The position numbers and the translations under genes are program-made. A stretch of DNA of 64,000 nucleotides from Bacteroidota bacterium (lineage in GTDB: Bacteria > Bacteroidota > Bacteroidia > Chitinophagales > Saprospiraceae). Location: assembly GCA_006226345.1 (NCBI GenBank), contig SBHD01000176.1, forward strand, positions 5,036-69,035. The letters run 5' to 3'. The notes below the pieces were generated by a model that did not search any database, had not been told where the DNA came from, and saw nothing but the letters and a program-made list of their open reading frames with translations. Of the stretch, positions 8,173 to 29,894 are shown one piece after another. Position 1 is the stretch's first letter. Each line of letters opens with the position of its first letter.

Positions 8173-8225
8173 TTGATATAATATGAAGATAATCAATGGT
8201 TTGTGAAAGTGGTGGGCGAATTTGA

Positions 8226-10003: not shown

Positions 10004-10120
10004 TTACCGGAACAGGGCGAGGGATTTTTCCAGGGTCTGTAATATACCCCACAACAGTGGTATTCCGACAAACAGCCAGGACAGCCATAGCGGCCAGTTT
10101 TGTTGAGTTTTATTCTTCAT
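10004..10120 (-). CDS. 38-aa single-TM small protein, possible MFS transporter small subunit
   Basis: Below the ORF-track cutoff. Manual translation gives MKNKTQQNWPLWLSWLFVGIPLLWGILQTLEKSLALFR*. Its ATG (10120-10118) lies inside the last codons of the MFS gene (ATGAAGAATAA overlap), which suggests coupling. Confidence 0.55.
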   Translation of the reverse strand: MKNKTQQNWPLWLSWLFVGIPLLWGILQTLEKSLALFR

Positions 10121-11498: not shown

Positions 11499-11591
11499 AA
11501 CAGAACGGCTAGTTTTTACCGGTTAAAGTAAAAAGAAATCCATGGTTGCGAAAAGCGTTCTCTGATTTAAGTCCATTTGCCATAACCAGTA

Positions 11592-14042
11592 TTAATCCGA
11601 CCGCAGACTTTTTACAGGACTGCCCAGCGCTGCGCGAACGCTTTGAATACTGATCGTAATAAACGCGATCAGGATCGCTGCCAGCCCGGAAAGCAGGAAT
11701 ATCCACCACGGCACCTGAATGTGATAAGAGAATGTTTCCAACCATTGTTGCATAAAATACCAGGTCAGTGGAGCCGCAACCAATAGCGCGAGTCCGACCA
11801 GGAGCAGATATCCCTTTGAGAGCATCCCGACAATACCTGCTACACTTGCTCCCAGTATTTTACGTATGCCGATCTCTTTGGCTTTCTGGTGGATAGTGAA
11901 ACTGATCAGACCAAACAGGCCGAAACAGGAAAGGAAAATGGCAATTGCAGAAAAATACCCGATCAGGCTGGCCAGCCGCTGCTCTTCCTGATATGCCAGT
12001 TGCAGGTTGTCATCCAGGAATGCGTATTCAAATGCCTTTTCGGGAAAATAGTCCTTCCAGTGCCGCTCGATCAGATCAAGTGTTGCCGGGATATTATCCT
12101 GCTTTACCCGGATCGCAAATGTGGTGAAAGCACCTACGCCAACGTCCATAATAACAGGCTCCAGAGCTGCTTGCAGTCCGCGGGTGTGAAAATTATTGAC
12201 AACCCCAACGATATGACCTCTTTTACCACCCTTGGTCATTGATTTTCCAATGGCTTCGGCAGGCGAATTCCAGCCCAGCGTTTTTACAGCCATTTCATTG
12301 ATAATAAAGGCATCTATGTGGTCGCTGCCATATTCTTTACCAAAATTCCGCCCCTCCAGGATCTGTAGCCCGAATGTTTGTGCAAAATCGTAATCTGCGG
12401 AGATGCAGGGCAGGAATACATTATCCTCAACCGTGATCTTGTCTGTCGTGATCGGATGCCGGACCGCACCTACTCCCGGCAGGTTGGATGCCTGCGTGAT
12501 CGCTTCAATTTGCGGATGCTGTAACAGTTTTTCCTCAAATGCCAGTGTGCGGCCCCGCAGGGTAGAATCTCCTGGCATAAACGCCGCATTCATATTCGGG
12601 CTGAATAAAGGCACGGCGAGTACCTGATTTCGTTCAAATCCCAACGGCATATTTTCCCAATACCGCAGTTGGGACAGGATAACAAACGTGCCACTCAGCA
12701 AGGCAATACCAACGATAAACTGGATTGTGATCAGCGACTTGCGTAACCACTGGCGCCCACCGGTGTGGCCGGTATGGTGCTGGAATATACGAGCCGGCTG
12801 AAACCGGCTGGCGATTACGGCCGGATACAGACCTGCCAGCAGTCCGGTTACAAGTGCTATTCCCGCAAACAGAGCAGTCTGGGGCCAGTTCCCTAGCAGG
12901 TTGAATGAAATGGTACGGGCCGTCAAAGCATTCAGGTAAGGCAAAACCAGGCTAACCCCAATTAATGCCAGTATGCAGGCAAAAATACAGATCAGAACTG
13001 CCTCGCTGACCAACTGGCTGATCAGACCTCCTTTTCCTGCACCTAACACCTTGCGAACGGCAACTTCTTTCATCCGATCCAGGTAGATCGCATTGGACAG
13101 GTTTATAAAATTGATCGCCGCGATCAGCAGGATCAGGAGCCCTACAATTGCGAACAACCGCAGGTATGCCAGGTTGGCTACCGGCTCCGGCTCGCCCTCT
13201 GCCTCCGACAACAAATGGATTTCCGAGACAGGGAACAAAACAAAGGCCTGCTTATCAATGAAATTTGGGTCGCCAAACCGTTTCAGAAAGTCCGGGAAAG
13301 CGGCATCAACCGCTCCACTTGAAGTGCCTTCACGGAGTCGAACATAGGTATAGGTATATGATGCTATCCAATTGGCATTTTGTGCGATCAGGATAGATTC
13401 CCGTGCATAGTCCGGTTCAGTATCTACAATATTGGAAAAGGGTACCAACAGATCAAAATGCAAATGTGCCTGCTCGGGAAAGTCCCTGACCACAGCATTG
13501 ACCTTGAATGGTTGTTGTTGGCCAGCCAAAAGCAGGGTCCGGCCCAGGGCCTGCCGTGTACCGAAAAAACGTTCGGCTGTTTCTTCCGTAAGTACAACAG
13601 TAAACGGTTCCTGCAAAGCCTGTTCCGGGTTGCCTTGCACAAATTCAAAATCAAATACTTGTGTGGCCGTACTGTCGGCAAACAATGCATTGGGGATCTC
13701 GATCTGCCTGTCCTGTTCCGGGTCCCGTACGCTGATACTCCGCGGGTAAAAGCGCGCGGCCGTTTCAATTTGGGGGAAATTATCAACTAACCGGGGCCCT
13801 ATCGGTGCGGGTATGCGTGTCAGTTCAAATGTACTGCCGGAAAACTTTGCCTGATAATTGACTCGATAAAGCCGGTCAACACTCTCGTGGAACCGATCAT
13901 ACTGCCGTTCGTGCCGGACATACAACAAGATCAGGAAACAACACATCAACCCAACTGCCATACCAAACAGGTTGATGGCAGTATATCCCTTTTGCTTCCA
14001 AAGGTTCCGGCTGGCGATTTTCAGGTAGTTTTTGATCATCAT
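11592..14042 (-). CDS. ABC transporter permease, fused double MacB-periplasmic/FtsX module (paralog 5)
   Basis: Start trimmed to MMIKNYLKIASRNLWKQKGY. Two FtsX-type TM bundles, each preceded by a large periplasmic domain. C-terminal tail SPVKSLRSD is shared with the paralogs. Confidence 0.9.
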   Translation of the reverse strand: MMIKNYLKIASRNLWKQKGYTAINLFGMAVGLMCCFLILLYVRHERQYDRFHESVDRLYRVNYQAKFSGSTFELTRIPAPIGPRLVDNFPQIETAARFYPRSISVRDPEQDRQIEIPNALFADSTATQVFDFEFVQGNPEQALQEPFTVVLTEETAERFFGTRQALGRTLLLAGQQQPFKVNAVVRDFPEQAHLHFDLLVPFSNIVDTEPDYARESILIAQNANWIASYTYTYVRLREGTSSGAVDAAFPDFLKRFGDPNFIDKQAFVLFPVSEIHLLSEAEGEPEPVANLAYLRLFAIVGLLILLIAAINFINLSNAIYLDRMKEVAVRKVLGAGKGGLISQLVSEAVLICIFACILALIGVSLVLPYLNALTARTISFNLLGNWPQTALFAGIALVTGLLAGLYPAVIASRFQPARIFQHHTGHTGGRQWLRKSLITIQFIVGIALLSGTFVILSQLRYWENMPLGFERNQVLAVPLFSPNMNAAFMPGDSTLRGRTLAFEEKLLQHPQIEAITQASNLPGVGAVRHPITTDKITVEDNVFLPCISADYDFAQTFGLQILEGRNFGKEYGSDHIDAFIINEMAVKTLGWNSPAEAIGKSMTKGGKRGHIVGVVNNFHTRGLQAALEPVIMDVGVGAFTTFAIRVKQDNIPATLDLIERHWKDYFPEKAFEYAFLDDNLQLAYQEEQRLASLIGYFSAIAIFLSCFGLFGLISFTIHQKAKEIGIRKILGASVAGIVGMLSKGYLLLVGLALLVAAPLTWYFMQQWLETFSYHIQVPWWIFLLSGLAAILIAFITISIQSVRAALGSPVKSLRSD

Positions 14043-14064
14043 AATCTTGTTTTTTCGCTGCTGC

Positions 14065-14949
14065 TTACGGCAGTTCGATCCGGCATATTTCAAAATTATT
14101 CGCCCCCCGAAACCCGGTTATCAGCAGGTGCCTGCCATCTGGGCTCCAGGAAGGCAGGGTGTCACCATCGGAATTATGGGTGATCTGCTGTTTTTTCTTG
14201 CCGTTGCGACGCATGATAAATATTTCCGGGCGGCTTTCTGCCATCGATTGAACATAGGCGATCTGCGTTCCATCCGCCGACCAGGCGGGGCAGAAACTGT
14301 GGCCGGACACATTTGTGCACCGTTTCCATCTGCCGGTATCCAGATTTAGTGTGTAGACCTCATCGTAAAGGTTGCCGGTTTCGTGCCGGGCATGAAAGGT
14401 CAGACTTGACCCGTCCGGCGACCAGTTTGCATAAGCATACCGGTAATTACCGATGGTCAGCAACCGGAGCGAACGGTCGCTTATCCGGTACAGATAAAGG
14501 TGAAACACAGCCGTATCCACCTGTAAGGTAAAAACAATGGACCCGCCATCCGGCGAAACTCGGCCAAAGTGCATGTCCCCTCCCGGAACAGCAACCTGCA
14601 CGGCCTTTTCAACCACGTCACTGTCCAAACTGAACCAGTACAGGATTGAGTGGCCGCTGCGATCAGACTCAAACAAAACAGACCGGCCGTCCGGGTGCCA
14701 GGATGGCTGCCGGTTATTGGCGGTATCCTGTGTCAGTTGCCGGACATTGTTGCCATCAATATCCATTTGATAAATATCCCAGGTGCCGCTTCTGTCGGAC
14801 TCAAAGATGATCGAACGCCCGTCCGGAGCGTAACTGGCATACCGGTCATTAGCCGGATGCCTGGTCAGACAGGTCTCCTGGTAAGTGGCCTGTGCGGGTA
14901 GTGTCCCGGGTCCACAAAGCAATGCGAACCACAGCCAGTGCCAATTCAT
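14065..14949 (-). CDS. TolB-like WD40/PD40 beta-propeller protein, secreted
   Basis: Repeated PD40 motifs (PDGRSIIFESDRSGTWDIYQMDIDG, PDGRSVLFESDRSG, SPDGSSLTF, SADGTQIAYV, SPDGRHLLI). Start set to the ATG that gives signal peptide MNWHWLWFALLCGPGTLPAQA. Confidence 0.85.
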   Translation of the reverse strand: MNWHWLWFALLCGPGTLPAQATYQETCLTRHPANDRYASYAPDGRSIIFESDRSGTWDIYQMDIDGNNVRQLTQDTANNRQPSWHPDGRSVLFESDRSGHSILYWFSLDSDVVEKAVQVAVPGGDMHFGRVSPDGGSIVFTLQVDTAVFHLYLYRISDRSLRLLTIGNYRYAYANWSPDGSSLTFHARHETGNLYDEVYTLNLDTGRWKRCTNVSGHSFCPAWSADGTQIAYVQSMAESRPEIFIMRRNGKKKQQITHNSDGDTLPSWSPDGRHLLITGFRGANNFEICRIELP

Positions 14950-15043
14950 AAAGAAGCGCTGACGTAGCGAAGAGTTAACCCAACCGGAAATCACATGCAT
15001 ACAGGCAACAATTTTACTGGTCGCCCGACTACGACCGGGACTA

Positions 15044-17452: not shown

Positions 17453-17464
17453 GACTGAGCAGTT

Positions 17465-19924
17465 TTATTCGTTACGCAATGCCTTTACAGGGTTGGAGAG
17501 TGCTGCACGGATACTTTGCAACCCAACGGTCATAAAGGCTACCAGCAGAGCGATTATTCCGGCAAGCACAAACACCCACCAACCTACCTCAATGCGATAG
17601 GCAAAATTTTCCAACCAACGGTCCATGAATAGCCAGGCGAGCGGCGTAGCCAGGACCAGCGCGATCAATACGAGTTTCAGGAATTCAGCGGAAAGCAATC
17701 TGACAATTCCGGTGGTGGTAGCGCCCAGGACTTTACGGATCCCGATTTCCTTGGTGCGCCGTTCTGCGGTATAGATCGCCAGCCCGAAAAGTCCAAGACA
17801 AGAAACAAGCACCGAAAGCAAGGCAAAAATTCCGGCGATCTTACCAATCCGTTGTTCGGAAATATACACCTTGGAAAAAGCATCATCCATAAACCGGTAA
17901 GCAAATGGCTGGCCTGGCGCCAGTCGTTTCCAGGAATTCTCCAGTGATGCAAGCAGCGGTTGTGTTTCAGCGGCCTTATACCGTATGGATATGTACGACC
18001 TTGAATCGCCCAACCAAAAGGAGAGCGGCCCGATATGGTCCCGCAGACTGGAAAAATGAAAGTCCTTTACTACACCGATCACGGTATGTTCTTCAAAATC
18101 GTCCGGCACCTGGTCCCCTTTAATGCGACCTTTAGGTGAATATATTTTTGATCCCAGTGGCTCGCTGAAGCCAAAAAGCGCCGCGGCTGTTTCGTTAATC
18201 ACTACAGCAGAACTGTCTGACGGGAACCGTTCCGGATCAAAATACCGGCCGGATACTATTTCCAGGCCGAGTGTTTTAATATAATCCGGATCCGTTACCC
18301 AGCGCTGCATATTGACCGACTGATCCTCCCGGAACGCCCGTACCTTGCTGAAGGTCTGATCACTCCGGTTGGAAGGCACCGGCAGATACCCGGAAATGGT
18401 AGCGGTTTCTACCGCCGGATGCTGCAAGGCCTCATGTTTAAAGGCACTGATGGCATCTCCCAGCGCATAAGCATCCTCCAGGATCAGTACCTGATCCTTT
18501 TGGAAACCGAGTTTTTTTTGCTGGATGTAGTTTAACTGATTATATACAACTGCCGTGGCAATGATCAGTGCGATGGAAGTTGCAAACTGGAATACGACCA
18601 GAACACTGCGTAAACGGCCTCCTCCTCTTTTTCCCTCAGACTGCCCTTTCAGCGTATGGATCGGCGAAAAGGACGAGAGGAAAAATGCAGGGTAGATACC
18701 AGCCAAAAATCCCACGATGGCAATACCGGCAACCAATGCCAGCCAGAAAAATGGCTGCCCCCATGGCATGGTAATTGGCCGCACTGTGATATCGGCAAAC
18801 CAGGGCATGACCAGTGCCGCTATACAGACGGCCAGTCCTACAGCAATAGTGGCCAGTATAATGGACTCTCCTAAAAACTGCCGGATCAATGCTGTCCGGG
18901 GGCTGCCTAATACTTTGCGCACACCAATTTCGCGCGCCCGGTGTGCCGAGCGTGCAGTCGTAAGATTCATGAAATTTATACAGGCGATCAGGAGTACAAA
19001 TAATGCAATGGCACTAAATATCCAAACATGCTGGATACTGCCATTAGGCTGCAACTCTGCAGTTTTATCCGAAAAAAGATGGATTACGGTTAGTGGTTGA
19101 AGGGAGTACCGCACATATTGCCCGGTTGACTCCAGCATGGAAATGTCCTGACCAAAAATACGTCGGGCTGTTTCATTGACCTTCTCTTTGGAGAAAGCCA
19201 GGAATTTCTTTTCAAAGTCCTTGAGGTTTACACCATCCCGGATCAGGATGTATGTCTGAAAGTTGTTGCTGGATGCCCACAGCGGCGTGTCGTTCAGTAC
19301 CTCCTCATTTCCATTCATAGAAAGCAGCAGGTCGGCTTTGAAGTGGGTAGTAGGAGGAAGGTCTTCATAAACAGCCCGTACCACCCAGTTTTCCTTATTG
19401 TCCAGGATGAGCGTTTGACCGATCGCCATTTGCAAAGCACCGAAATATTTGATCGCCCGGCTTTTTGAAATTGCCAGTGACTTGGGTTGGGTCAGACAGG
19501 TGCGCGGGTCGCCTTCCAGCACCTGTACCGGGAACACTTGAAAAAAACTACTATCCACTGTCAGCGCGTCCTCTTCCCGGATATTCTGCTGGTCTTCCCC
19601 TTCGCGTTTGACGAGATAGGAACCGTATTGCCTAAACCGGCAGTAGGCCTCCACCTCGGGGAATTGCTGTTTCATGTCCGGTCCGATCGGACTACCCGTC
19701 ACTGCCAGGTCAAAATGCGAACCGCCAAACTGGATCTCGGTTACCGGCCGGAAGATCCGGTCTGCATTCGGATTCCATTTGTCATATGCCAGCTCGTAAA
19801 CAACAAAAAGCAGGATTAGCATACAGCAGGCTACGCCAATGGCCAGGCCGGCGATATTGATCAATGTGAATGCTTTGTATTTACGCAGATTTCGAATGGT
19901 GATCTTCAGATAGTTGTACAACAT
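17465..19924 (-). CDS. ABC transporter permease, fused double MacB-periplasmic/FtsX module (paralog 3)
   Basis: 819 aa. N-terminus MLYNYLKITIRNLRKYKAFTLINIAGL and C-terminus NPVKALRNE. Confidence 0.9.
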   Translation of the reverse strand: MLYNYLKITIRNLRKYKAFTLINIAGLAIGVACCMLILLFVVYELAYDKWNPNADRIFRPVTEIQFGGSHFDLAVTGSPIGPDMKQQFPEVEAYCRFRQYGSYLVKREGEDQQNIREEDALTVDSSFFQVFPVQVLEGDPRTCLTQPKSLAISKSRAIKYFGALQMAIGQTLILDNKENWVVRAVYEDLPPTTHFKADLLLSMNGNEEVLNDTPLWASSNNFQTYILIRDGVNLKDFEKKFLAFSKEKVNETARRIFGQDISMLESTGQYVRYSLQPLTVIHLFSDKTAELQPNGSIQHVWIFSAIALFVLLIACINFMNLTTARSAHRAREIGVRKVLGSPRTALIRQFLGESIILATIAVGLAVCIAALVMPWFADITVRPITMPWGQPFFWLALVAGIAIVGFLAGIYPAFFLSSFSPIHTLKGQSEGKRGGGRLRSVLVVFQFATSIALIIATAVVYNQLNYIQQKKLGFQKDQVLILEDAYALGDAISAFKHEALQHPAVETATISGYLPVPSNRSDQTFSKVRAFREDQSVNMQRWVTDPDYIKTLGLEIVSGRYFDPERFPSDSSAVVINETAAALFGFSEPLGSKIYSPKGRIKGDQVPDDFEEHTVIGVVKDFHFSSLRDHIGPLSFWLGDSRSYISIRYKAAETQPLLASLENSWKRLAPGQPFAYRFMDDAFSKVYISEQRIGKIAGIFALLSVLVSCLGLFGLAIYTAERRTKEIGIRKVLGATTTGIVRLLSAEFLKLVLIALVLATPLAWLFMDRWLENFAYRIEVGWWVFVLAGIIALLVAFMTVGLQSIRAALSNPVKALRNE

Positions 19925-19961
19925 GGCGCATTGTTTTCAATGATATTGCAGAACAGATGGG

Positions 19962-22346
19962 TTATTCGGATCGGAGGCTGTTGACTGGATTGGCCAGGGC
20001 TGCTTTTACACTTTGGACGCTGACCGTAGCCAGGGCAACCAGCAATGTAACCCCTATCGTCGTTGCAAACACACCTGCCCCCAGGGAGATGCGATAAGTA
20101 TAATCCTCGAGCCAGGTATGCATGGCCCACCAGCCCAGGGGTGCGGCCAGGAAATAGGCGAAAATGATCAACCGGACGAATTCCTGTCCGAATAAATTCA
20201 GGATTTGCGAAACGGATGCCCCCAACACTTTCCGTATGCCGATCTCTTTTCTTCTGCGTGCAGCCATAAACGAGATCAAACCATATAATCCCATACAGCC
20301 GATGAACAGTGCAATCCCGCAGAATACCTGAGTCAAGCCCAGCAGGGCGTTTTCCAATTGATAGAACCTGGCAATAGATTCATCCAGGAACGTATAACTG
20401 TAAAAATCGTCCGGAAAAATCCTGTTCCATTTTTCTTCCATGGCAGAAAGAACTGTCTCTGTCTGGCTCAGGTCAATGCGTACACCGCAGGTCTCGTAAC
20501 TTTCCAGGCTCGTCATGAGCACTACCGGATCGATAGCATCATGGAAGGAGCGGGAGTGAAAATCCTTGATCACGCCAACAACCGGTCCGGTGCGACCCCA
20601 TACCGTGAATTGCTTGCCCAGTACTTCTTCCGGGGAACTGAATCCGAGTTTGTTCACCGCTGATTCATTGAGGATGAATTCCCGGATCGTATCCCCAGGT
20701 AACAGGTTTCGGCCTGCGACCAGGCTCAGACCAAAAGTGCTGAGATACCGGTCATCCGCAGGCTGGGTGGTGATATACCATTGCTCGTCCTCCTGCCGGC
20801 CTTCAAACCGGCAATTGGACTGATTTTGCGAATGGCCTGCCGGAGCATCGTAGGCAAAACTGGTTTGCCTGACCCCTGGTATTTGTTCAAGTTGTTGCCT
20901 CAGTGCTTCCACCTTCGGCTTCCCGGCATCCGGTACCGGAAGCAATACGATTGATTCGGTACGGAAACCCAGACTGGCGTTTTTGATATAATTCATTTGT
21001 GCCGTGATCACTATGGCGGCAATGATCATGATCTGACAAATGATAAACTGGGCCACGACCAGCCCCCGTCGTACGGAATAACCACCCAGTGTTTGAGTGT
21101 TGATCCGTCCCTTCAGGGCCAAAACGGGGCGGAATCCGGCCAGGATCAGTCCCGGATATGCTCCTGAGCAAAGGGTGACCCCGGTCAAAGTAGCGGCCAG
21201 CGTTCCCCATAACCCCCAATCCGACCGCAGATCTATGCTGATCTTGGAATGGGTCAGTTCGTTCATAAATGGCAATAATGCCTGGGTAATCAATACGGAT
21301 ACAACTACGGCGAACAGCGTGATCAGGCCGGTTTCCAGTAAGAACTGTAAAAACAATTGCCCACGGCTGCTGCCCAGTACTTTACGAACGCCCACTTCCT
21401 TGGACCGGATTAAAGCCTGTGCAGTGGCCAGGTTGATAAAGTTAATACAGGCAGTGCCGATCAGGAATAAGCCGACCACTGCCAATGCCCAAAGCACTGA
21501 TTTCGGAACATTTCCATTGTAGGCGGTATTAAAATACACATCCCGGAGTGGTTGGAGGTGATGACTCCAGCGGTCGTACTCGGGTTGATGTTTTTTTAAA
21601 AAAGCCGGGAGCCTTGAATTTATTTGCTCGGGTTTCATGCCTTCGGGTAAGACCACATAGCAAATGTGGTTACCGCTTACACCAGACCAGTGCTCCATAC
21701 TTTCCTTTGTATTGATGGCGCGGTAGCTGGCGTAGGACAGGAAAAGTTCCAGCCGGGCTTCCGTATTAGCCCTGACGGGCCCTAAAAGTCCTGCCACGGT
21801 ATATGTATGTTCATTGTTGACCATGAAGGTGCGTCCGACTGGATCGGTATTGCCGAACAACCGTTGTGCCAACGGCTTTGAAATGACGGCCTTGAAGGGT
21901 TCCGTCAGCACACCAGGCGTGCCTTTTACCCAGGTGTAGTCAAATACATCGAAGAACTCGGGCTCAACATACCCCAGTTCGCGTTCAAGCATGAACTTCT
22001 TCCGTTCTCCCGTTTCGGTTGCAGGCAATACGGTAACCAGTTGATCATTTTGCTGCCGGCTTTGCGCAACCGTTTCTACTTCCGGGAAATCCAGCCTGAA
22101 TGCCGGGCCAAACGGGTAGGGCACTCCGGGGGTTTGGACTAATCTGCCGAACTCAATATCTGTAACGACCCGGTACGTCCGGTCTGCCTTTTCATGGTAC
22201 CGGTCCATGCTGAGGTGAAAACGAACGATCAGGAAGATCATCAACCCACATGTAATGCCCAATGCCAGCCCGGCGATATTCAGCAGACTGTAATTCCGGT
22301 AGCGCTGGAGGTTGCGTAAAGCGATAGTCAGGAAATTCCGGATCAT
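19962..22346 (-). CDS. ABC transporter permease, fused double MacB-periplasmic/FtsX module (paralog 2)
   Basis: 794 aa. N-terminus MIRNFLTIALRNLQRYRNYSLLNIAGL and C-terminus NPVNSLRSE. Confidence 0.9.
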   Translation of the reverse strand: MIRNFLTIALRNLQRYRNYSLLNIAGLALGITCGLMIFLIVRFHLSMDRYHEKADRTYRVVTDIEFGRLVQTPGVPYPFGPAFRLDFPEVETVAQSRQQNDQLVTVLPATETGERKKFMLERELGYVEPEFFDVFDYTWVKGTPGVLTEPFKAVISKPLAQRLFGNTDPVGRTFMVNNEHTYTVAGLLGPVRANTEARLELFLSYASYRAINTKESMEHWSGVSGNHICYVVLPEGMKPEQINSRLPAFLKKHQPEYDRWSHHLQPLRDVYFNTAYNGNVPKSVLWALAVVGLFLIGTACINFINLATAQALIRSKEVGVRKVLGSSRGQLFLQFLLETGLITLFAVVVSVLITQALLPFMNELTHSKISIDLRSDWGLWGTLAATLTGVTLCSGAYPGLILAGFRPVLALKGRINTQTLGGYSVRRGLVVAQFIICQIMIIAAIVITAQMNYIKNASLGFRTESIVLLPVPDAGKPKVEALRQQLEQIPGVRQTSFAYDAPAGHSQNQSNCRFEGRQEDEQWYITTQPADDRYLSTFGLSLVAGRNLLPGDTIREFILNESAVNKLGFSSPEEVLGKQFTVWGRTGPVVGVIKDFHSRSFHDAIDPVVLMTSLESYETCGVRIDLSQTETVLSAMEEKWNRIFPDDFYSYTFLDESIARFYQLENALLGLTQVFCGIALFIGCMGLYGLISFMAARRRKEIGIRKVLGASVSQILNLFGQEFVRLIIFAYFLAAPLGWWAMHTWLEDYTYRISLGAGVFATTIGVTLLVALATVSVQSVKAALANPVNSLRSE

Positions 22347-22350
22347 AGCG

Positions 22351-24768
22351 TTATTCGTTGCGTAAACTGTTGACAGGGTTGGCAGAAGCCGCTTTAACTA
22401 CCTGAAGGCTGACGGTAAAAAAGGCCACTCCCAGCACGAGTACTGCGGTCAATAAGAAGATCCACCAATGAATCGGGGTTCGGAAGACAAAATCTTGTAG
22501 CCATACCTGCATCATATACCACGCAACAGGAGCAGCAACCAGAAACGCAATCAGGACCAGTTTGACAAAATCCACAGACAATAAGCCAACCACACCGGTC
22601 ACGGATGCCCCCAATACCTTTCGGATGCCGATCTCCTTGGTCTTTTGTGCTACGAGCAGAGAGGCCAGACCAAACAGTCCGAGGCAGGAAATAAAGATCG
22701 CCAGAACAGCAAAGGCCTTGGCAAGGGCAGCAAACCGGTTTTCAGCCCGGTAAAACTGAGCGATCCGGTCATCCAGGAATTGCCCATCCAGTACCTGATC
22801 GGGAAATGTAGCTGCGAAGGTTTGACCAATGTGTGCAATCGTTTGATCCACATTGCCAGGTTTGATCTTGATACCAACGGTACTGTAAAACTGTTTGGCC
22901 GGCAGGATGGTCATGGGCTTTACAGGTTCTCTGGCTGAGTTTGCCGTAAAGTCCTGAACAACTCCGACAATGGGTCGCCAAACACCACCTCCCAGTCTAA
23001 GCTCCTTGCCTATTGCTTCCTTCGGGTCGGTTATGCCCAGCCTTTCCAGTAACAACATGTTGACCACCACTGTACGCGTGGTATCCGATTCCCGGTAGGG
23101 GACTCCGGCCAGTAACCGGAATCCATAAGTATTCAGATATTCTGCGTCCGCAATTTTCAGGGAAGTATTGAACGGGGCATCGTTCGCCTGATGGCCAAAA
23201 CTGAAATTACTATCCCAGTTATTGCCTGATGTCGGCGGGTCGCTTGAATAACTGACCGACTGTATTTCAGGCATCTGCAACAGCTGGTTTTTAAAAGCAG
23301 CCAGTAAAGGGGTGCTGGAGCTGTCGGCATTTAGCCCGTTGATCGTGTACACCAGGTCGGGCTGATAGCCCAGGTCCAGGTTGCGGATATACTCCATTTG
23401 ACTGATCGTCACCAGTGTGCCAATGATCAATACCTGGGCAATGCCGAATTGCAGAAAAACGAGCACCTTACGCAGGGACAAGCCGGCAAAAACACGGGTT
23501 TGAAGGTTGTTTTTCAACGCCTGTACCGGGTCAAACCCAGCCAGTACGAATGCCGGATAAAATCCGGCCAGCAGGCTGATCCCCAAAAACAGCAAACCCA
23601 GAAATGCCAGGGTCTGCCAGTCTGAAAAGAATGGGAGGCTCCGGGGCACTTCGGATATCATAGGCAGGAACGGCGAAAATGTCGTTGCCAACAGGGCGCC
23701 GGCAACTACGGACAGAAAAACGGTTACAGCCGCTTCCCCGAGGAACTGTTGCATCAATTGGTTTCGGGTGCTGCCTAATGTTTTCCGCACGCCGACCTCC
23801 CTCGACCGGGCGCCGGCCTGGGCAGTGGCCAGATTGATAAAATTAAAACAGGCCATGATCAGAACCAGAAGTCCGATCAGAGATAACGTCCAAAGCCGTT
23901 CGGGAGTGACCGAATGGGTGCCGAGGTGCCCGATCTGGTCGTTGAAATGTTGTTCTGAAAGGGCCTGCAACAGATGTTTCTTTTTAAAGACATCATCGGC
24001 ATATTCTTCCTTTCCGACCTCTGCGAGCAATCGAGCAGCTTCCTTCTCCTGGTCCGGATGATGCAGCAACGCCCAGGCCTGATCGTTACTGCTGATGTTG
24101 TTCCAGTTGGGTGTATACCCGAATATATCCGGGTGTTTACGAAGCGTCTCGTAAGAAGCCAGCAGGTTAAACTGAAAATCCGAATTGGCCGGCGGGTCAA
24201 CGATTATACCACGAATGGCCAATTCAAGATCCTGATCCAACAGCAGGGTTTTACCCATTGCAACCTGCCAGGAGCCAAAACATTTTTCAGCCAGGCTTTC
24301 CGTCAATACGACTGTATTCGGCTCGGAAAGCGAAGAGCCCGGGTCGCCGGCCAGCCAATCCCAATCGAAAATCTGGAAAAAGTTCGGTTCGGCGAAGGCA
24401 GCAACTTCCTTCAGCCCATCAGTCGAAAACTTCAGGCCGGGTGCATCCGGCGAAGCGATCTGCGGGTAAAAGGAATGGAGCCGGGTAAACACCTCAAATT
24501 GCGGAATGTTGGCCGCCATGGCATCCATGGCAGGGATCGGAATGCCCGATGTGAACTGCGCATCATGCTCATTCTTTTCCGTGGTCACGATCCGGAAAAT
24601 GCGATCTGCCTTTTGGTGGTGGCGGTCGAAACTTAATTCATACCGGACCATCTGGAACAGCAGGAGACATGCCGCAATGCTGACCGAAAGACCGAGGATA
24701 TTGATCAGGCTGAAATGCCGCTGGCGAAGAAGCGCCCGCCAGGCAATTTTAAGGTTGTTTAGCCACAT
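22351..24768 (-). CDS. ABC transporter permease, fused double MacB-periplasmic/FtsX module (paralog 1)
   Basis: 805 aa. N-terminus MWLNNLKIAWRALLRQRHFSLINILGL and C-terminus NPVNSLRNE. A 4-nt gap separates it from the next permease. Confidence 0.9.
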   Translation of the reverse strand: MWLNNLKIAWRALLRQRHFSLINILGLSVSIAACLLLFQMVRYELSFDRHHQKADRIFRIVTTEKNEHDAQFTSGIPIPAMDAMAANIPQFEVFTRLHSFYPQIASPDAPGLKFSTDGLKEVAAFAEPNFFQIFDWDWLAGDPGSSLSEPNTVVLTESLAEKCFGSWQVAMGKTLLLDQDLELAIRGIIVDPPANSDFQFNLLASYETLRKHPDIFGYTPNWNNISSNDQAWALLHHPDQEKEAARLLAEVGKEEYADDVFKKKHLLQALSEQHFNDQIGHLGTHSVTPERLWTLSLIGLLVLIMACFNFINLATAQAGARSREVGVRKTLGSTRNQLMQQFLGEAAVTVFLSVVAGALLATTFSPFLPMISEVPRSLPFFSDWQTLAFLGLLFLGISLLAGFYPAFVLAGFDPVQALKNNLQTRVFAGLSLRKVLVFLQFGIAQVLIIGTLVTISQMEYIRNLDLGYQPDLVYTINGLNADSSSTPLLAAFKNQLLQMPEIQSVSYSSDPPTSGNNWDSNFSFGHQANDAPFNTSLKIADAEYLNTYGFRLLAGVPYRESDTTRTVVVNMLLLERLGITDPKEAIGKELRLGGGVWRPIVGVVQDFTANSAREPVKPMTILPAKQFYSTVGIKIKPGNVDQTIAHIGQTFAATFPDQVLDGQFLDDRIAQFYRAENRFAALAKAFAVLAIFISCLGLFGLASLLVAQKTKEIGIRKVLGASVTGVVGLLSVDFVKLVLIAFLVAAPVAWYMMQVWLQDFVFRTPIHWWIFLLTAVLVLGVAFFTVSLQVVKAASANPVNSLRNE

Positions 24769-24908
24769 ACTGTTTTGAATACGGGTAAGTGTATGTATCG
24801 TTCCGAACCGGGGCGGGTGCCACCGGCCGGAACATCAAAACAAAAAGAGGGGCAGCGTGGCGATGTTTGTTTTCATAGCTTAATCGCAGTTGCCAGCCCC
24901 GGTTGGTT

Positions 24909-25595
24909 TTAGAGGTATTGCTTCACCAGGTTTTCTGTCACGACCTGCCCATCCAGCATCCGGATGATCCGGTTTCCAAATTCCGCGCAATACTGCGAGT
25001 GCGTTACCATCAGGATTGTCGTGCCTTCGGAATTGAGTTGCGACAGGATCTTCATGACTTCATCGCCATTGGCGCTGTCGAGGTTTCCGGTCGGTTCGTC
25101 TGCAAGGATCAGTTTGGGGCGGTTAACGATGGCACGGGCTACGGCCACCCGTTGTTGCTGTCCGCCGGATAGCTGTTGCGGGAAGTGGTTGCGGCGGTGC
25201 ATGATGTTCATACCTTCCAGCAGTTCCTCCACCCGGGCTTTCCGTTCGCTGTTTGGCACCTTGGTGTACAGCATCGGCAGTTCGATGTTTTCGAACACCG
25301 TCAGTTCATCGATGAGGTTAAAACTTTGGAAGACAAAACCTAGGTTGTGTTTTCGGACATTGGAGCGTTTGCGCTCACTCAGGCTCCCGACTTCCTCACC
25401 CAAAAAATGATAGGTGCCACCGCTCGGGCTGTCAATCATGCCCAGTACATTGAGCAGGGTGGATTTTCCACAGCCGGAAGGGCCCATTACCGATACGAAT
25501 TCACCCTCTTTGATCTCCAGGTCTACGTCGTTCAGGGCTGTTGTTTCCACTTCTTCCGTACGGTAGACTTTTGAAAGGTTCGTTGTTTTGATCAT
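24909..25595 (-). CDS. ABC transporter ATP-binding protein, MacB/LolD type
   Basis: Walker A GPSGCGKST, signature LSGGQQQR and Walker [13 protein letters not shown]. Confidence 0.92.
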   Translation of the reverse strand: MIKTTNLSKVYRTEEVETTALNDVDLEIKEGEFVSVMGPSGCGKSTLLNVLGMIDSPSGGTYHFLGEEVGSLSERKRSNVRKHNLGFVFQSFNLIDELTVFENIELPMLYTKVPNSERKARVEELLEGMNIMHRRNHFPQQLSGGQQQRVAVARAIVNRPKLILADEPTGNLDSANGDEVMKILSQLNSEGTTILMVTHSQYCAEFGNRIIRMLDGQVVTENLVKQYL

Positions 25596-25644
25596 ATCTG
25601 CCTTTAATCTGATTTACATGGTGATGGTCTGGATATCCGGACCG

Positions 25645-26895
25645 TTATTGCAGTACTAACTCATCTTTGTCTCCAAAATTTTCATATCCGGAAACGATAA
25701 CGATATCGCCTGTTTGTAAGCCGTCCAAGATCTCGTAGAAGTTGGGATTCTGCCGGCCCAGCCGGACGGAGCGCTTCCGGGCATTGCCTGAAGCGGGATC
25801 GATGACATATACCCAATTGCCGCCGGTGGTCTGGTAAAAGCCACCGCGTTGGAGCAACAAGGCTTGTTCTTCAGCGCTTAGTTCGAGTTTGACGGAAACG
25901 GATTGCCCGCGTTTTATACCTTCTGGTGCCTGACCTACAAACACCATGTCCGCCTCAAATGCGCCGCTTACCACTTGTGGATAGATCTTTTTTATCTTCA
26001 GGGTATACGTTTTTCCGGCAAACTGGAAACTGCCTTCCTGCTCGTTAAAGACTCTGGAGATATAGAATTCATCGATCCGGACCCGAACTTTAAAGTTGCT
26101 CAGATCGTCTATCTGCCCGATATTTTCGCTGCGGGCAACGCTTTCGCCAAGTTCCTTGTTCAGACCGGAGAGTTGCCCGGCAATGGGCGCCCGTACGGTC
26201 AGTTGTTCCAGACTTTGCCGGGTAATCGCCAGGTTGCGTTGCATCAGGTCGAGCGATGACTCCATTTGGGTTTGTTGCAGGGCCTGATAGGCACTGTCCT
26301 TTCGGATGGTAGCCCGAAGCAGATCCTTTCGGCGCGTGAGGTTGTTGAAAAGCGCCTCGGTCTCTTCGAATTCCACCCGGGCAATGACCTTGTCCCGGTA
26401 TAACTCTTTATTGCGGTGCACGCGTTTGCCGGTAATGTCGATCTGGTAGTCCACATCCAGTGCTTGCTCCCGCAGGTTCAGGCTCTGTTGCTCCATTAGC
26501 AAGGACGTATTCCGGATCTGGTTGATCTGGGAAATGATGTTCGCTTCCTGGTTCAGGTAGTTGATCAGCAGGTCGGGGTTGGATAACCGTAGAATCGGTT
26601 GATTCGGTTGTACAAACGCACCGTCTTCCACAAATTTCTCCTCGACCTTGCCCCCTTCCACGGCATCGATCAATACGGTGCGGATTGGCTCTACAATTCC
26701 GGTGACCGGAATAAACTCCTGGAAATTGCCGGTGCTGACGGTGTCTGCCATTAGACGCTCTTTCTGCACATTCAACCGGGAAGTGCCGGCACTTTTCCAC
26801 ATCGAAGCGATCAGATAGACCACTACTATCAGGCCGACCGCTCCCAGAATAATGCGGGGCCAGGTAAATCGCTTCTTTTCAATTTTTCTATCCAT
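25645..26895 (-). CDS. HlyD-family efflux transporter periplasmic adaptor (MacA-like)
   Basis: 416 aa with an N-terminal TM anchor (IILGAVGLIVVVYLIASMW), a long coiled-coil middle and a beta-barrel-like C-terminus. Sits first in the operon with the ATPase and permeases. Confidence 0.85.
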   Translation of the reverse strand: MDRKIEKKRFTWPRIILGAVGLIVVVYLIASMWKSAGTSRLNVQKERLMADTVSTGNFQEFIPVTGIVEPIRTVLIDAVEGGKVEEKFVEDGAFVQPNQPILRLSNPDLLINYLNQEANIISQINQIRNTSLLMEQQSLNLREQALDVDYQIDITGKRVHRNKELYRDKVIARVEFEETEALFNNLTRRKDLLRATIRKDSAYQALQQTQMESSLDLMQRNLAITRQSLEQLTVRAPIAGQLSGLNKELGESVARSENIGQIDDLSNFKVRVRIDEFYISRVFNEQEGSFQFAGKTYTLKIKKIYPQVVSGAFEADMVFVGQAPEGIKRGQSVSVKLELSAEEQALLLQRGGFYQTTGGNWVYVIDPASGNARKRSVRLGRQNPNFYEILDGLQTGDIVIVSGYENFGDKDELVLQ

Positions 26896-26932
26896 GGTTA
26901 TGTATTGCTGCGCTTAAGTCCGCCTCTAGATC

Positions 26933-26948
26933 TTCAAGGGATATGCCA
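26933..26948 (-). promoter_or_regulatory. candidate sigma-54 (-24/-12) promoter, TGGCATATCCCTTGAA
   Basis: The minus strand reads TGGCAT-N5-TTGAA, 38-53 nt upstream of the HlyD ATG (26895). An NtrC-type activator is encoded divergently. Confidence 0.55.
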
Positions 26949-27012
26949 AATTAAATACTGGATTGATAATGAGTTTGTTATGTTTGAATATGCAGATTGA
27001 GCCTAACTAAAA

Positions 27013-27030
27013 GTGTTCATTTATGAACAC
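27013..27030. promoter_or_regulatory. perfect 8+2+8 palindrome GTGTTCAT-TT-ATGAACAC, candidate enhancer-binding (UAS) site 1
   Basis: Read directly from the sequence. Centred about 75 bp upstream of the -24 GG of the candidate promoter. Confidence 0.55.
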
Positions 27031-27100
27031 CCGTTTGTCCGTTTCCGGCCAGAAAAGCAGAAAAACTTTGTGGAGAAAAAGCAGCCTTTTTATTCGAAAA

Positions 27101-27118
27101 GTGTCCATTTTCGAACAC
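27101..27118. promoter_or_regulatory. GTGTCC-ATTTTC-GAACAC, candidate UAS site 2
   Basis: Second copy of the GTGTYC-N6-GAACAC motif, 88 bp centre-to-centre from site 1 and 27 nt upstream of the response-regulator ATG. Confidence 0.5.
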
Positions 27119-27144
27119 TTATTTACAACTTTGGCTCCAGAATC

Positions 27145-28524
27145 ATGAAACAGAAAGGTACCATATTAATAGTAGATGATGAGGAGGATATCCTGATTTC
27201 GGTCAAGATGTTCCTGAAACAACATTTTGAACGCGTTTTTACCGAACAGAATCCGCAGCACCTGCCGCGGCAACTGGGGCAGTGCGAGCCGGACGTGTTG
27301 CTGCTGGACATGAATTTCAGGAAGGGCGACACAAGTGGGGAAGAAGGCCTGCAATGGCTTCAAAAAGCACTTGAGTTAAAACCCGGGCTTCAGGTTATTA
27401 TGATCACGGCCTATGGCGAGGTGGAAAAAGCCGTCCGGGCGCTCAAAACCGGGGCAGCAGACTTTGTGGAAAAACCCTGGCGGAATGAAAAACTGCTGGC
27501 AACCGTACAGGCAGCCTTCAAACTGGTACAAAGTCAACAGGAGGTTCAACAACTACAATCGCGGCAACGCGCGCTAACGGACCACCTTGATTCCAGCGCC
27601 GGTGACATCGTAGGCAACTCGCCGGCGATGAAAGAGGTGTATAAGACCATTGAAAAAGTAGCGGACACAGATGCCAATGTCCTGATCCTGGGCGAAAATG
27701 GTACGGGAAAGGAACTGGTGGCGCGGGCTATTCACCGTCGTTCACTCCGGAATGAGCAAGTGTTCGTCAATGTAGATCTGGGCGCTATTCCGGAATCCCT
27801 TTTTGAAAGCGAACTTTTCGGACACAAAAAAGGAGCATTTACCGATGCCCGGGAGGACCGGGCCGGCAGGTTCGAGGCATCTGATGGCGGCAGCCTGTTT
27901 CTTGATGAGATCGGGAATCTGTCCCTGCCCATGCAGGCCAAATTATTGGCCGCACTGCAAAACCGCGAAATTGTCCGGGTAGGCTCTAACCAGCCGGTTG
28001 CCATCGATATCCGTCTGATTTGTGCAACCAACATGCCTCTTTATGAAATGGTCCGGGAAAAAACCTTTAGGCAGGACCTGCTCTATCGTATAAACACCGT
28101 AGAAATTCAACTGCCCCCGCTGCGGAACCGGGAGGGTGATGTCATATTGCTGGCTAATCATTTCCTGCGACAATATGCCAGAAAATACCAAAAGTCGGGA
28201 CTGGAGCTACATCCTGCAGCCCAGCAAAAACTGGAACAATATCCCTGGCCCGGCAATATCCGGGAGTTGCGCCATGCAATGGAACGCGCTGTGATCCTTT
28301 CTGAAAAATCTATCCTGACCCCTGGTGATTTTCTGCTGCATCCTGATTTTCATCAATCACCGGATTTTAGGCTTTCAGATGATACTCTAAACCTGGAGGA
28401 AATGGAGAAAAAACTGGTTCAGCGTGCTATGACCAAACACCATGGTAATATTTCAAAGGCAGCGGATGAGCTTGGCCTGACCAGGGCCGCATTGTACCGG
28501 CGGTTGGAAAAACATGGATTGTAA
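27145..28524 (+). CDS. sigma-54-dependent Fis-family response regulator (NtrC-type bEBP)
   Basis: REC domain (ILIVDDEEDIL...LLLDMNF), AAA+ domain (GENGTGKE, ESELFGHKKGAFTDA as a GAFTGA variant) and C-terminal HTH (GNISKAADELGLTRAALYRRLEKHGL). Start trimmed to MKQKGTILIVDDE. Confidence 0.92.
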   Translation: MKQKGTILIVDDEEDILISVKMFLKQHFERVFTEQNPQHLPRQLGQCEPDVLLLDMNFRKGDTSGEEGLQWLQKALELKPGLQVIMITAYGEVEKAVRALKTGAADFVEKPWRNEKLLATVQAAFKLVQSQQEVQQLQSRQRALTDHLDSSAGDIVGNSPAMKEVYKTIEKVADTDANVLILGENGTGKELVARAIHRRSLRNEQVFVNVDLGAIPESLFESELFGHKKGAFTDAREDRAGRFEASDGGSLFLDEIGNLSLPMQAKLLAALQNREIVRVGSNQPVAIDIRLICATNMPLYEMVREKTFRQDLLYRINTVEIQLPPLRNREGDVILLANHFLRQYARKYQKSGLELHPAAQQKLEQYPWPGNIRELRHAMERAVILSEKSILTPGDFLLHPDFHQSPDFRLSDDTLNLEEMEKKLVQRAMTKHHGNISKAADELGLTRAALYRRLEKHGL

Positions 28525-28562
28525 GGTCTTCTATAACTGCATTTAAAACCTGTTGGCTGTAT

Positions 28563-29894
28563 ATGTTTCGACTGTTTAAAACAAAGATCCTGTTACACGT
28601 CCTGTTACTGGTTATACTCCTGGGAGGCGTGGGATACGGGTTTAATACCGAGGGGCAAACTGGTCTGGCAGTGCTGTCTGGACTGGCTGTTGCAGTAGTG
28701 GTATTCAGCCTCTTCCGGCTGGTGGACAAAACGAATGCGGAGATTGCGTCATTCCTCCTGAATATCCAGTATGATGACTACACCGCCACCTATTCCGTCC
28801 AGGAGCCTGATCAATCGTTTGACAAACTGTACAATGCCTTCAACATCATCACCGATAAGTTCCGGGATATCCGGCAGGAGAAAGAAGCGCAGTTTCAATA
28901 CCTGCAGGCTATAGTTGAGCATGTAGACACTGGGCTGATCTGTTTTGACAATACCGGCAATACGTTACTAATGAATCGCGCCTTGCAGCGGTTGTTACAT
29001 AAATCCTATTTTCCGGACCTGGGTTCGGTGGAACGATTTAATCCTGGACTGTACGGTGCAATGGAAAACCTGAAACCAGGAGAACGGCAGTTGGTAAAAC
29101 TGGTCGTCAACGGGCAGATCGTGCAACTGGCGGTCAGAACGACAATGCTCAAACTCCGGAATGGGGAGTATCATCTTTACTCCATCCAGAATATCAGTGC
29201 CGAACTGGAAGAACAGGAAGTTCAGTCCTGGCAAAAGCTGATCCGTATCCTGACGCATGAGATCATGAATTCGGTCACTCCGGTTGCCTCACTTGCTGCC
29301 ACAGCCAGTGATATGGTCAGCCGGTTTTCCACATTTGATGCTGACTCAGCCGACGATATCAGAACAGCGGTGATGGCCATTCAAAAACGCAGTGAAGGCT
29401 TGTTGAACTTTACTGAAACCTATCGCCAACTTACCCGTATCCCTCCCCCTAAATTTCAGGAAGTCGAACCGGAAGCATTGCTGGAAAGGGTGTTGACCCT
29501 GTTCCGGCCAAAGCTGACTGAAAAGCGGATCAAGGTGGACAAGCAGTTTGCTACAAACACGGGTTCTATTCAGGCAGACCCGGATCTGCTGGAACAGGTG
29601 TTGATCAACCTGGTAAAAAATGCGATCGAGGCAGTTGAGCAGACAGACAGTCCAAAGATAGCCCTGGGTATTGCCAAAGATACGGAAGGAACGGTGATCA
29701 TACAGATCGCCGATAACGGTCCGGGCATACCTGATGCATTGCAGGAGCAAATATTTGTCCCCTTTTTTACTACTAAAAACGAAGGCTCCGGCATCGGATT
29801 AAGCCTGTGCCGTCAGATCGTTCAGTTGCACAAAGGCAGTCTTTCGGTAGTGTCGAAAGAAGGGGAGGGGGCCTCTTTTGTTATCCGGCTGTAG
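28563..29894 (+). CDS. sensor histidine kinase (two TM helices joined by a ~7-aa loop, PAS-like region, HisKA plus HATPase_c)
   Basis: H-box LTHEIMNSVTPV, N-box NLVKNAIEA, and G-boxes DNGPGIP and GSGIGLSLCRQIV. The TM1-NTEGQTG-TM2 arrangement leaves no periplasmic sensor domain. Confidence 0.9.
   Translation: MFRLFKTKILLHVLLLVILLGGVGYGFNTEGQTGLAVLSGLAVAVVVFSLFRLVDKTNAEIASFLLNIQYDDYTATYSVQEPDQSFDKLYNAFNIITDKFRDIRQEKEAQFQYLQAIVEHVDTGLICFDNTGNTLLMNRALQRLLHKSYFPDLGSVERFNPGLYGAMENLKPGERQLVKLVVNGQIVQLAVRTTMLKLRNGEYHLYSIQNISAELEEQEVQSWQKLIRILTHEIMNSVTPVASLAATASDMVSRFSTFDADSADDIRTAVMAIQKRSEGLLNFTETYRQLTRIPPPKFQEVEPEALLERVLTLFRPKLTEKRIKVDKQFATNTGSIQADPDLLEQVLINLVKNAIEAVEQTDSPKIALGIAKDTEGTVIIQIADNGPGIPDALQEQIFVPFFTTKNEGSGIGLSLCRQIVQLHKGSLSVVSKEGEGASFVIRL

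Follow-up and report, generated by a model that had tools for sequence, protein, structure and literature searches.

Five single-chain MacB-fold permeases with one adaptor, two ATPase paralogs and a putative sigma-54 circuit in a Saprospiraceae bacterium

How might five large permeases be served by a single adaptor and a single ATPase? The question is raised by a locus of a Bacteroidota bacterium (Saprospiraceae), contained within a window of 64,000 nucleotides (nt) from GenBank assembly GCA_006226345.1 (contig SBHD01000176.1, positions 5,036 to 69,035). The listing of open reading frames (ORFs) places on the minus strand, as an initial annotation made from the sequence had said, an adaptor, one in-operon ATPase of the ATP-binding cassette (ABC) type, and five full-length permeases, P1 through P5 (Table 1). 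That annotation took the 1:1:5 ratio as a puzzle, to be resolved either by interchangeable permeases or by heteromeric assemblies. The ratio, however, is an effect of looking at the operon alone. One ATPase (called ATP here) is indeed all that the operon contains, but the conserved system has two ATPase paralogs, and the second (ATP2), 54% identical to the first, lies outside the operon in this genome. The locus is a type VII (MacB-fold) ABC system, and we consider it moderately probable that it provides an inducible platform for export or extraction at the envelope, whose shared ATPases and adaptor would serve alternative permeases.

Consider first the permeases. Each of the five gives two matches to MacB_PCD and two to FtsX (Pfam) and has eight hydrophobic segments arranged 4+4, which agrees with their earlier description as fused double modules. 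They show the hallmark of type VII systems, an FtsX four-helix transmembrane (TM) bundle in which TM1 and TM2 are separated by a large Porter/Sabre periplasmic domain. P1 was modeled with AlphaFold2 from a 56-sequence alignment (pLDDT 83, pTM 0.77); amongst PDB folds the model is closest to YbbP, which it matches along its entire length (E 1e-20), and next to MacB, LolC/E, and BceB. A comparison of sequences with solved structures gives YbbP, LolC, and MacB as the nearest, all of them weak matches; the YbbP equivalog model, NF041854, gives 34 bits against a cut-off of 999. Each permease is a complete pseudo-dimer in one chain (TM1-PCD-TM2-4, twice), and therefore heteromeric assemblies of permeases, one of the two solutions offered initially, are not required.

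YbbP is likewise a pseudo-symmetric single chain, with 10 TM helices that include a TM5-6 linker pair, and it binds two copies of YbbA (PMC12646458). By analogy with YbbA2-YbbP, a single permease should bind two nucleotide-binding domains (NBDs). The E. coli YbbAP-TesA complex (a type VII ABC lipid-hydrolase complex; PDB 9GE6-8) thus resembles the present system in its single-chain pseudo-dimer, two periplasmic domains, and separate ATPase. It differs in that the permeases of the window have 8 TM helices, no TM5-6 linker pair, and no TesA-like partner, while an adaptor is present here and none in YbbAP, and the similarity in sequence is marginal.

The family to which the permeases belong is large (19,192 cluster representatives, at 50% identity, with E<=1e-30), and the public names of the proteins in the cluster are as generic as the initial annotation said they were, e.g., 'ABC transporter permease' or 'FtsX-like permease family protein'. 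For all five permeases, the top NCBIfam model is TIGR03434, the 'Acidobacterial duplicated orphan permease' (ADOP), with scores of 255-328 bits against a cut-off of 622.3 and alignments that extend from model positions 3-5 to 803 of 803. Like the permeases of the window, ADOP proteins are about 800 amino acids (aa) in length, with two MacB_PCD+FtsX modules end to end, and form a very large paralogous family without known function. There are also orphan copies here: an ortholog of P1 occurs with no ATPase nearby in the related locus L003. Unlike ADOP proteins, those of the window fall under the subfamily cut-off, come from Bacteroidota and the broader FCB group (Fibrobacterota, Chlorobiota, and Bacteroidota) rather than Acidobacteria, and are encoded in one operon together with an ATPase and an adaptor. 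ADOP proteins are defined by having no adjacent ATPase; the ATPase of the window lies 140 nt upstream of P1.

Related loci were sought by scanning one genome per species with the adaptor of the window as query, so that the adaptor is present in all 80 by design, and they were annotated, with flanks of 10 kb, by BLAST against the proteins of the window. Across these loci a module recurs: genes for a kinase and a regulator point one way, and those for the adaptor, ATP, sometimes ATP2, and a variable number of permeases point the other. The loci fall into two groups. The first is from Saprospiraceae and Lewinellaceae, with adaptors 55-85% identical to that of the window, and the second is from Ignavibacteria, Calditrichia, KSB1, Marinimicrobia, Cloacimonadota, Balneolales, and Cytophagales, with adaptors 43-49% identical. 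No other broadly conserved unannotated gene was found in the related loci.

Orthologs of ATP are found in all related loci (65-96% identity). Also, 40 of 69 related loci have a second ATPase, located after ATP or amongst the permeases, and the closest protein of the window to that second ATPase is ATP2, not ATP. Both score highest against models of DarD, the NBD of MacB, LolD, and FtsE, and their top PDB matches are Spr0694, MJ0796, MacB, and LolD. The two constitute separate orthologous groups, distinguished by motif differences each conserved at a level of at least 90%. Neither has lost Walker A, Walker B with its catalytic glutamate, the Q-loop, or the H-loop, but the signature motif LSGGQQQR of ATP is LSGGQQQL in ATP2 (R to L), and the D-loop NLD is NLH (D to H). 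These two motifs face the partner NBD, and ATP and ATP2 probably form an asymmetric heterodimer, judging from the positions of the conserved differences. In the window, ATP2 follows a gene encoding a protein with a MacB_PCD domain and no FtsX bundle (PCD-only) and a gene encoding a GNAT acetyltransferase, behind a sigma-54-type promoter of its own, and the operons of the window's clade (adaptors 83-85% identical) are without ATP2. The explanation we favor, with moderate confidence in the whole, would have ATP2 moved to a place 5 kb past the array, where a promoter of the same type precedes it.

Or perhaps there are two separate pumps, each driven by a homodimer of one of the ATPases and using different permeases, or perhaps most members of the array are redundant spares. 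ATP2 has its own promoter in the window, no ATP2 is in view in 29 of the 69 loci, and in L031, L039, L043, L046, L065, and L077 one to three permeases come before it. In four of these (L031, L043, L046, and L065) it lies amid the permeases, an arrangement that could mean two sub-systems. However, ATP2 directly follows ATP in most of the loci that have it, and its conserved changes sit exactly in the motifs that face a partner NBD. Redundancy and decay are at odds with the finding that all five permeases are intact and have orthologs 60-74% identical in other genera. We regard this pair of alternatives as distinctly unlikely.

If the ATPases and adaptor are indeed shared, what distinguishes one permease from another? 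Full-length pairwise identity amongst P1 through P5 is 27-35%. The least conserved parts are the periplasmic domains (25-27% identity), as against 36-44% for the TM blocks, including both coupling helices, while the termini and the coupling helices are conserved, and residues invariant in the family are retained in all five. Because the elements expected to face the NBDs (N-terminal helix, coupling helices, and C-terminal tail) are kept while the periplasmic domains diverge, the permeases would appear to be alternative partners of the same ATPases and adaptor.

The initial annotation viewed the permeases, from their conserved termini and diverged bodies, as old paralogs rather than recent duplicates, and comparison with other genomes agrees: for 120 of the 123 permeases of multi-copy arrays, the nearest relative lies in another genome, and the median identity within an array is 35%. 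At least three full-length permeases (three being the ceiling of the 10-kb downstream view) are found in 27 of the 51 loci for which the full 10 kb can be seen, with two in 10, one in 6, and none in 8. One close relative, L001, has at least six. Orthologs of the individual permeases can be recognized: of P1 in Saprospiraceae (48-67% identity), of P2 in L007, L008, and L010 (59-64%), of P3 in L001, L007, L009, L010, and L053 (64-71%), of P4 in L001, L010, and L087 (65-74%), and of P5 in L087 (815 aa, 66%), where it directly follows a gene that also precedes P5 in the window. That ortholog, together with alignment with the paralogs, places the start of P5 at 14042, giving 816 aa. The 833-aa form, from a TTG start overlapping the preceding gene, was rejected on these grounds, and so the upper end of the initial range of sizes, 794-833 aa, does not hold.

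Where adaptors are 83-85% identical and ATPases 92-96% identical, orthologs of P1 through P4 are 62-74% identical, and it appears from these comparisons that the permeases outpace the core proteins in evolution. Permease sets differ even between close genomes. L001 has P1, P3, and P4 plus three others; L010 has P2, P3, and P4 plus one other; L007 has P2 and P3; and L053 has P3 plus one other. Since the sets differ amongst genomes with a nearly identical core, the arrays would seem to be mosaics assembled from old lineages, members of which are often gained or lost between close relatives. Such mosaics, and the orphan ortholog of P1, fit the idea that ATPases are shared and act in trans. The other solution offered initially, interchangeable permeases on shared components, therefore fits the data: array content varies at 83-85% adaptor identity, and the parts facing the NBDs are conserved.

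The adaptor passes the cut-off of TIGR01730 (121 bits against 94.9), scores 212 against the DarC model (cut-off 450) and 42 against the MacA equivalog model (cut-off 342), and has MacA as its top PDB match. One is led to compare the locus with MacAB-TolC, with which it has in common a MacA-like adaptor, permeases of the MacB fold, and an ATPase of the MacB/LolD clade. MacB, however, is a homodimer of 4-TM chains fused to their NBDs, whereas the NBDs here are separate and of two kinds, and the permeases are 8-TM single chains. Furthermore, the system of the window has multiple alternative permeases and no linked TolC gene.

What, then, receives the substrate? The initial annotation was right that the cluster has no TolC gene: the OEP/TolC domain is absent from the ORFs of the window that were scanned, and a TolC-like ORF is seen in 3 of the 80 related loci. 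Two genes of the neighborhood bear on the question. The first fills the roughly 1 kb between P4 and P5 and encodes a secreted PD40 beta-propeller (Pfam PD40, 1.4e-38; TolB models score under their cut-off). The initial claim that gaps in the operon are no more than 4-140 nt fails between P4 and P5 as first annotated, and with this missed gene counted, it holds for all gaps. Orthologs of the PD40 protein (45-57% identity) occur in Lewinellaceae and Saprospiraceae. Three contexts were examined: in L087 the gene has the same position in the array as in the window, in L086 it lies beside two permeases, and in L088 it has no link to a permease. (In L086, at 8073-10326, about 1.2 kb downstream of the PD40 ortholog, a gene with a HamA domain precedes one for a DEAD/ResIII helicase, the two resembling a Hachiman-type defense pair.) The second is the PCD-only gene, a sixth, truncated permease-like gene of the neighborhood. 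Its product matches MacB_PCD (7.7e-12) and, by tblastn, residues 45-286 of P5. A homology search with the PCD-only protein returned itself alone, and its conservation rests on synteny with L087. Because a 300-aa MacB_PCD protein is encoded at the syntenic position of L087, the gene is probably a real one, not a remnant.

These observations suggest the main rival to an export platform, an extractor that works in the style of LolCDE-LolA or YbbAP-TesA, taking a hydrophobic or lipid-anchored molecule from the outer leaflet of the inner membrane and handing it to a periplasmic partner (PD40, PCD-only, or the adaptor) with no TolC duct. YbbP, whose extraction of hydrophobic compounds supplies a periplasmic enzyme (PMC12646458), is the best match in fold over the whole length; linked TolC genes are missing from the window and from 77 of 80 relatives; and the secreted propeller and the membrane-anchored PCD-only protein are conserved inside the locus. 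Yet a MacA-type adaptor comes first in the operon in 80 of 80 loci (though the adaptor was the query by which they were retrieved), its best solved match belongs to MacAB-TolC, and adaptors of its kind usually connect to a channel in the outer membrane. It is common for TolC genes to be unlinked, and PD40 is present in some arrays only. On balance, we judge hand-off within the periplasm to be unlikely, and we continue with the platform for export or extraction, which might use a TolC encoded elsewhere, and in which transport would be by export or by extraction from the inner membrane or periplasm.

Might the exported compound be one that the cell makes for itself? DarBCD, encoded in the darobactin cluster of Photorhabdus, has a duplicated permease of about 780 aa, an adaptor, and a separate ATPase, and perhaps several permeases would serve several such peptides or natural products. 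The top NCBIfam hits of the ATPase and the adaptor are indeed DarD and DarC, and DarB is second for the permeases. All these scores, however, are far below the equivalog cut-offs: 285 against 375 for ATP, the 212 against 450 already mentioned for the adaptor, and 84-122 against 700 for the permeases. The window has no darA or darE, five permeases rather than one, two ATPase paralogs, and sigma-54 control. No precursor, radical-SAM, or biosynthetic gene appears in the ORFs of the window that were scanned, none is conserved in the related loci, and inducible two-component control would rather be expected of a system that answers to an external signal. We therefore find a dedicated exporter of a self-made product very improbable. 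DarBCD is itself weakly characterized; deletions cut the darobactin titre 2-4 fold (PMC8442675).

The genes divergent from the operon encode a kinase and an NtrC-type regulator, and their link to the operon, asserted in the initial annotation, is upheld by a conserved promoter and enhancer site. The regulator matches Sigma54_activat (1.2e-68) and HTH_8 (9.7e-14) in Pfam, has a GAFTDA loop in its AAA+ domain, and is adjacent to the adaptor in 58 of the 73 loci with enough upstream sequence. In the window, the sigma-54-type element TGGCATATCCCTTGAA ends 37 nt before the ATG of the adaptor gene, and the center of the proximal of two palindromes lies about 75 nt upstream of the -24 GG. These elements were compared in 76 orthologous upstream regions from several FCB phyla, using shuffles and 47 coding regions as controls. 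The core GGCAY-N5-YTG occurs in the sense orientation in 50 of the 76 and in the antisense orientation in 1, as against 0.75 on average in shuffles and 0 of 47 in the coding controls. The palindrome TGTNC-N6-GNACA occurs in 64 of the 76 (0.3 on average in shuffles, 0 of 47 in coding controls). The two are found together in 47 regions, with the center of the palindrome mostly 60-100 nt upstream of the GG. TTGA constitutes the -12 element in 29 of the 50 and TTGC in 11, and the TTGA variant is conserved across several phyla. The comparative evidence is strong that this is a sigma-54 promoter with a predicted enhancer site for the divergent regulator.

The same combination recurs nearby. A composite element, defined as the palindrome followed after 45-72 nt by GGCAY, occurs exactly three times in the window (0.1 expected), each time upstream of minus-strand genes of the neighborhood: the adaptor gene, the PCD-only/GNAT/ATP2 unit, and an ORF of 98 aa. 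In the second and third instances, the GG lies 63.5 nt from the center of the (proximal) palindrome, and both are conserved in L087 with identical spacing, the third there being GGCAC-N5-GTGT with palindromes at 10903-10940. A palindrome with GGCAT at 44884-44997 lies within a coding ORF and does not have the spacing of the composite element, and it was taken to be due to chance. A scan of the operon for sigma-70 promoters and terminators, uninformative for Bacteroidota, gave no excess over shuffles, and Rfam and tRNA scans of the cluster region gave nothing. An earlier in-silico survey noted that sigma-54 promoters are enriched ahead of genes for COG0577 (FtsX-like) permeases in Bacteroidia and other classes (PMC12316311), and so the general link between sigma-54 and FtsX-type permeases is not new. 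To judge from our literature searches, the putative enhancer site, the proposed regulon of three promoters, and the conservation of the TTGA variant have not been described before.

The kinase (HATPase_c, 5.7e-26, with a weak cytoplasmic PAS match at 113-151) has TM helices at 9-25 and 35-51, separated by a loop of about 8 aa, a topology kept in its orthologs. Because there are but two TM helices and a very short outer loop, the kinase, being without a periplasmic sensor domain, is predicted to be incapable of binding a periplasmic ligand directly. In this regard it brings to mind BceAB-BceRS, the antimicrobial-peptide sensing and detoxification system of Firmicutes, where a type VII ABC transporter is likewise encoded next to a two-component system and the kinase, again with two TM helices, has hardly any extracellular loop. 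The differences are considerable, however. BceB has 10 TM helices and one extracellular domain, and BceR is of the OmpR type and acts with sigma-70, while the permeases of the window have 8 TM helices, and the regulator is of the NtrC type and linked to sigma-54.

No named system amongst those considered (MacAB-TolC, DarBCD, ADOP, YbbAP, BceAB-RS) matches the locus in full, although its parts are all of known kinds. Homology and literature searches brought up no characterized ortholog, in agreement with the initial annotation, which knew of no assigned substrate or mechanism, and no experimental studies of such arrays were found in the literature under ADOP, MacB paralog arrays, COG0577 in Bacteroidetes, or sigma-54 with MacB.

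The explanation we favor may now be put together. The locus would encode an inducible type VII ABC envelope machine with a shared core, made up of a single MacA-like periplasmic adaptor plus the two LolD-type paralogous ATPases, and a variable part, the array of single-chain permeases, each of which would be an alternative partner for that core, with a substrate or periplasmic partner of its own. A signal at the level of the membrane or the transporter would lead the kinase to phosphorylate the NtrC-type regulator, which would bind TGTTC-N6-GAACA 60-100 nt upstream of TGGCAY-N5-TTGA promoters and activate sigma-54 RNA polymerase. Three units might be so controlled: adaptor-ATP-P1-P4-PD40-P5, perhaps extending to a gene for an MFS transporter; the 98-aa ORF; and PCD-only-GNAT-ATP2. 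The favored function is the inducible export or extraction of envelope-active compounds, and the substrate might be related to stress or be a xenobiotic or peptide.

Several observations weigh against this explanation, besides the loci where ATP2 is out of view or amid the permeases, which might then form two sub-systems, either one driven by a homodimer of its own ATPase. In the -12 element, TTGA predominates over the canonical TTGC, so that the final C is not conserved, and the -12 of the third promoter is poor. Co-transcription of the operon is suggested by the gaps of 4-140 nt, and there may be internal promoters. A single-sequence AlphaFold2 model of the adaptor was unusable (pLDDT 37), the rarity of linked TolC genes leaves a trans-envelope duct unproven, and no gene of the neighborhood identifies a substrate.

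Table 1. Features of the locus, in window coordinates, from the kinase gene to the second ATPase gene
Feature	Position	Strand	Remarks
Kinase	28563-29894	+	HATPase_c, weak PAS
NtrC-type regulator	27148-28524	+	Response_reg, Sigma54_activat, HTH_8
Distal palindrome TGTCC-N6-GAACA	27102-27117 (27101-27118 with flanking letters)		One mismatch; putative regulator site
Proximal palindrome TGTTC-N6-GAACA	27014-27029 (GTGTTC-N6-GAACAC 27013-27030)		Perfect
Sigma-54-type -24/-12 promoter TGGCATATCCCTTGAA	26933-26948	-	TGGCAT-N5-TTGAA, conserved core
Adaptor, MacA/HlyD-type, N-terminal TM anchor	25645-26895	-	HlyD_3, HlyD_D23
ATPase ATP, MacB/LolD/DarD clade	24909-25595	-	ABC_tran
Permease P1, 805 aa, single-chain double module, 8 TM	22351-24768	-	
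Permease P2, 794 aa	19962-22346	-	
Permease P3, 819 aa	17465-19924	-	
Permease P4, 802 aa	15044-17452	-	
PD40/TolB-like beta-propeller, signal peptide	14065-14949 (ORF opens 15000; 294-311 aa)	-	
Permease P5, 816 aa	11592-14042	-	
MFS transporter	10110-11498	-	MFS_1; 93 nt downstream of P5
Two tandem palindromes TGTNC-N6-GNACA	9960-9995		
Candidate third sigma-54-type promoter GGCATGGGTTATGT	9891-9904	-	GGCAT-N5-ATGT, non-canonical -12
Conserved 98-aa ORF	9519-9815	-	Downstream of candidate third promoter
Palindrome TGTTC-N6-GAACA	8227-8242		Upstream of PCD-only gene; kept in L087
Sigma-54-type promoter TGGCACAATCATTGAA	8157-8172	-	GGCAC-N5-TTGAA
PCD-only protein, 304 aa, membrane-anchored, TM1 + MacB_PCD	7181-8095	-	
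GNAT acetyltransferase	6641-7159	-	Pfam
Second ATPase ATP2	5872-6546	-	5 kb beyond permease array

Beyond the array, L087 provides the best comparison, with the order P4, two permeases, PD40, P5, MFS, a small ORF, DAO (on the opposite strand), and PCD-only. PD40, P5, and MFS were considered for a time to be insertions specific to the window, as they were unseen in the 80 adaptor-centered loci, and this idea was dropped, since L087 shows the same order beyond the reach of 10-kb flanks. Its MFS transporter is 79% identical to that of the window and in the same position. A hydrophobic ORF of 38 aa, MKNKTQQNWPLWLSWLFVGIPLLWGILQTLEKSLALFR (10004-10120, minus strand), overlaps the 3' end of the MFS gene and is conserved after the MFS ortholog in L087; it may encode a small subunit of that transporter. 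The product of the 98-aa ORF is cytoplasmic, has no Pfam family, and is, by eye, about 70% identical to that of an ORF in L087.

The GNAT gene comes after the last permease in L007 and L053. In both (L007 at 11157-13643, L053 at 19726-21246), the array and the GNAT gene are followed by a GH9 cellulase-like gene, the L007 copy of which adds a polysaccharide deacetylase domain. Directly downstream of ATP2, on the same strand, lies a gene for a secreted M1-family zinc peptidase (3885-5738, minus strand), which may be part of the ATP2 transcription unit.

Elsewhere in the window, there is a gene for a KirBac-like potassium channel of the inward-rectifier type (50526-51476, plus strand; IRK_C, Ion_trans_2) and two that appear to be of the housekeeping sort, encoding a homolog of the bacillithiol synthase BshC (39869-41467, minus strand) and a 525-aa permease of the LptF/LptG family (35226-36803, plus strand). 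Three ORFs, of 475 aa (364-1791, minus strand), 285 aa (53253-54110, plus strand), and 346 aa (57088-58128, plus strand), have no Pfam family at the thresholds used. The sole RNA gene detected in the window is a tRNA-His (GTG) at 60004-60078 (plus strand).

It is tempting to go further. Perhaps the locus represents a combinatorial platform found throughout the FCB group, in which a library of single-chain permeases with fast turnover (at least five or six per array, plus orphans elsewhere in the genome) would draw on one adaptor and on an asymmetric heterodimer of ATP and ATP2, each permease having its own periplasmic specificity. The kinase would read the activity of the transporter, as in the flux sensing of Bce-type systems, and the sigma-54 circuit would co-induce all the parts from three promoters. 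Taken as a whole, this picture is tentative and rather unlikely. If true, it would be the first case of interchangeable membrane subunits in an ABC system of the exporter type, to be compared with group II energy-coupling factor (ECF) importers and their shared EcfAA'T.

Duplicated FtsX/MacB permeases of about 800 aa are amongst the largest uncharacterized transporter families in environmental bacteria, and the locus and its 80 relatives offer a testable system, with a regulator, its putative site, a promoter, two ATPases, an adaptor, and a variable array. The conserved TTGA variant of the -12 element and the fixed enhancer spacing of 63.5 nt may also serve as a model for sigma-54 control in Bacteroidota. 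If motor and adaptor are shared, then ABC exporters would have a new way to widen their range, and the sharing would explain ATPase-less 'orphan' permeases such as the ADOP proteins.

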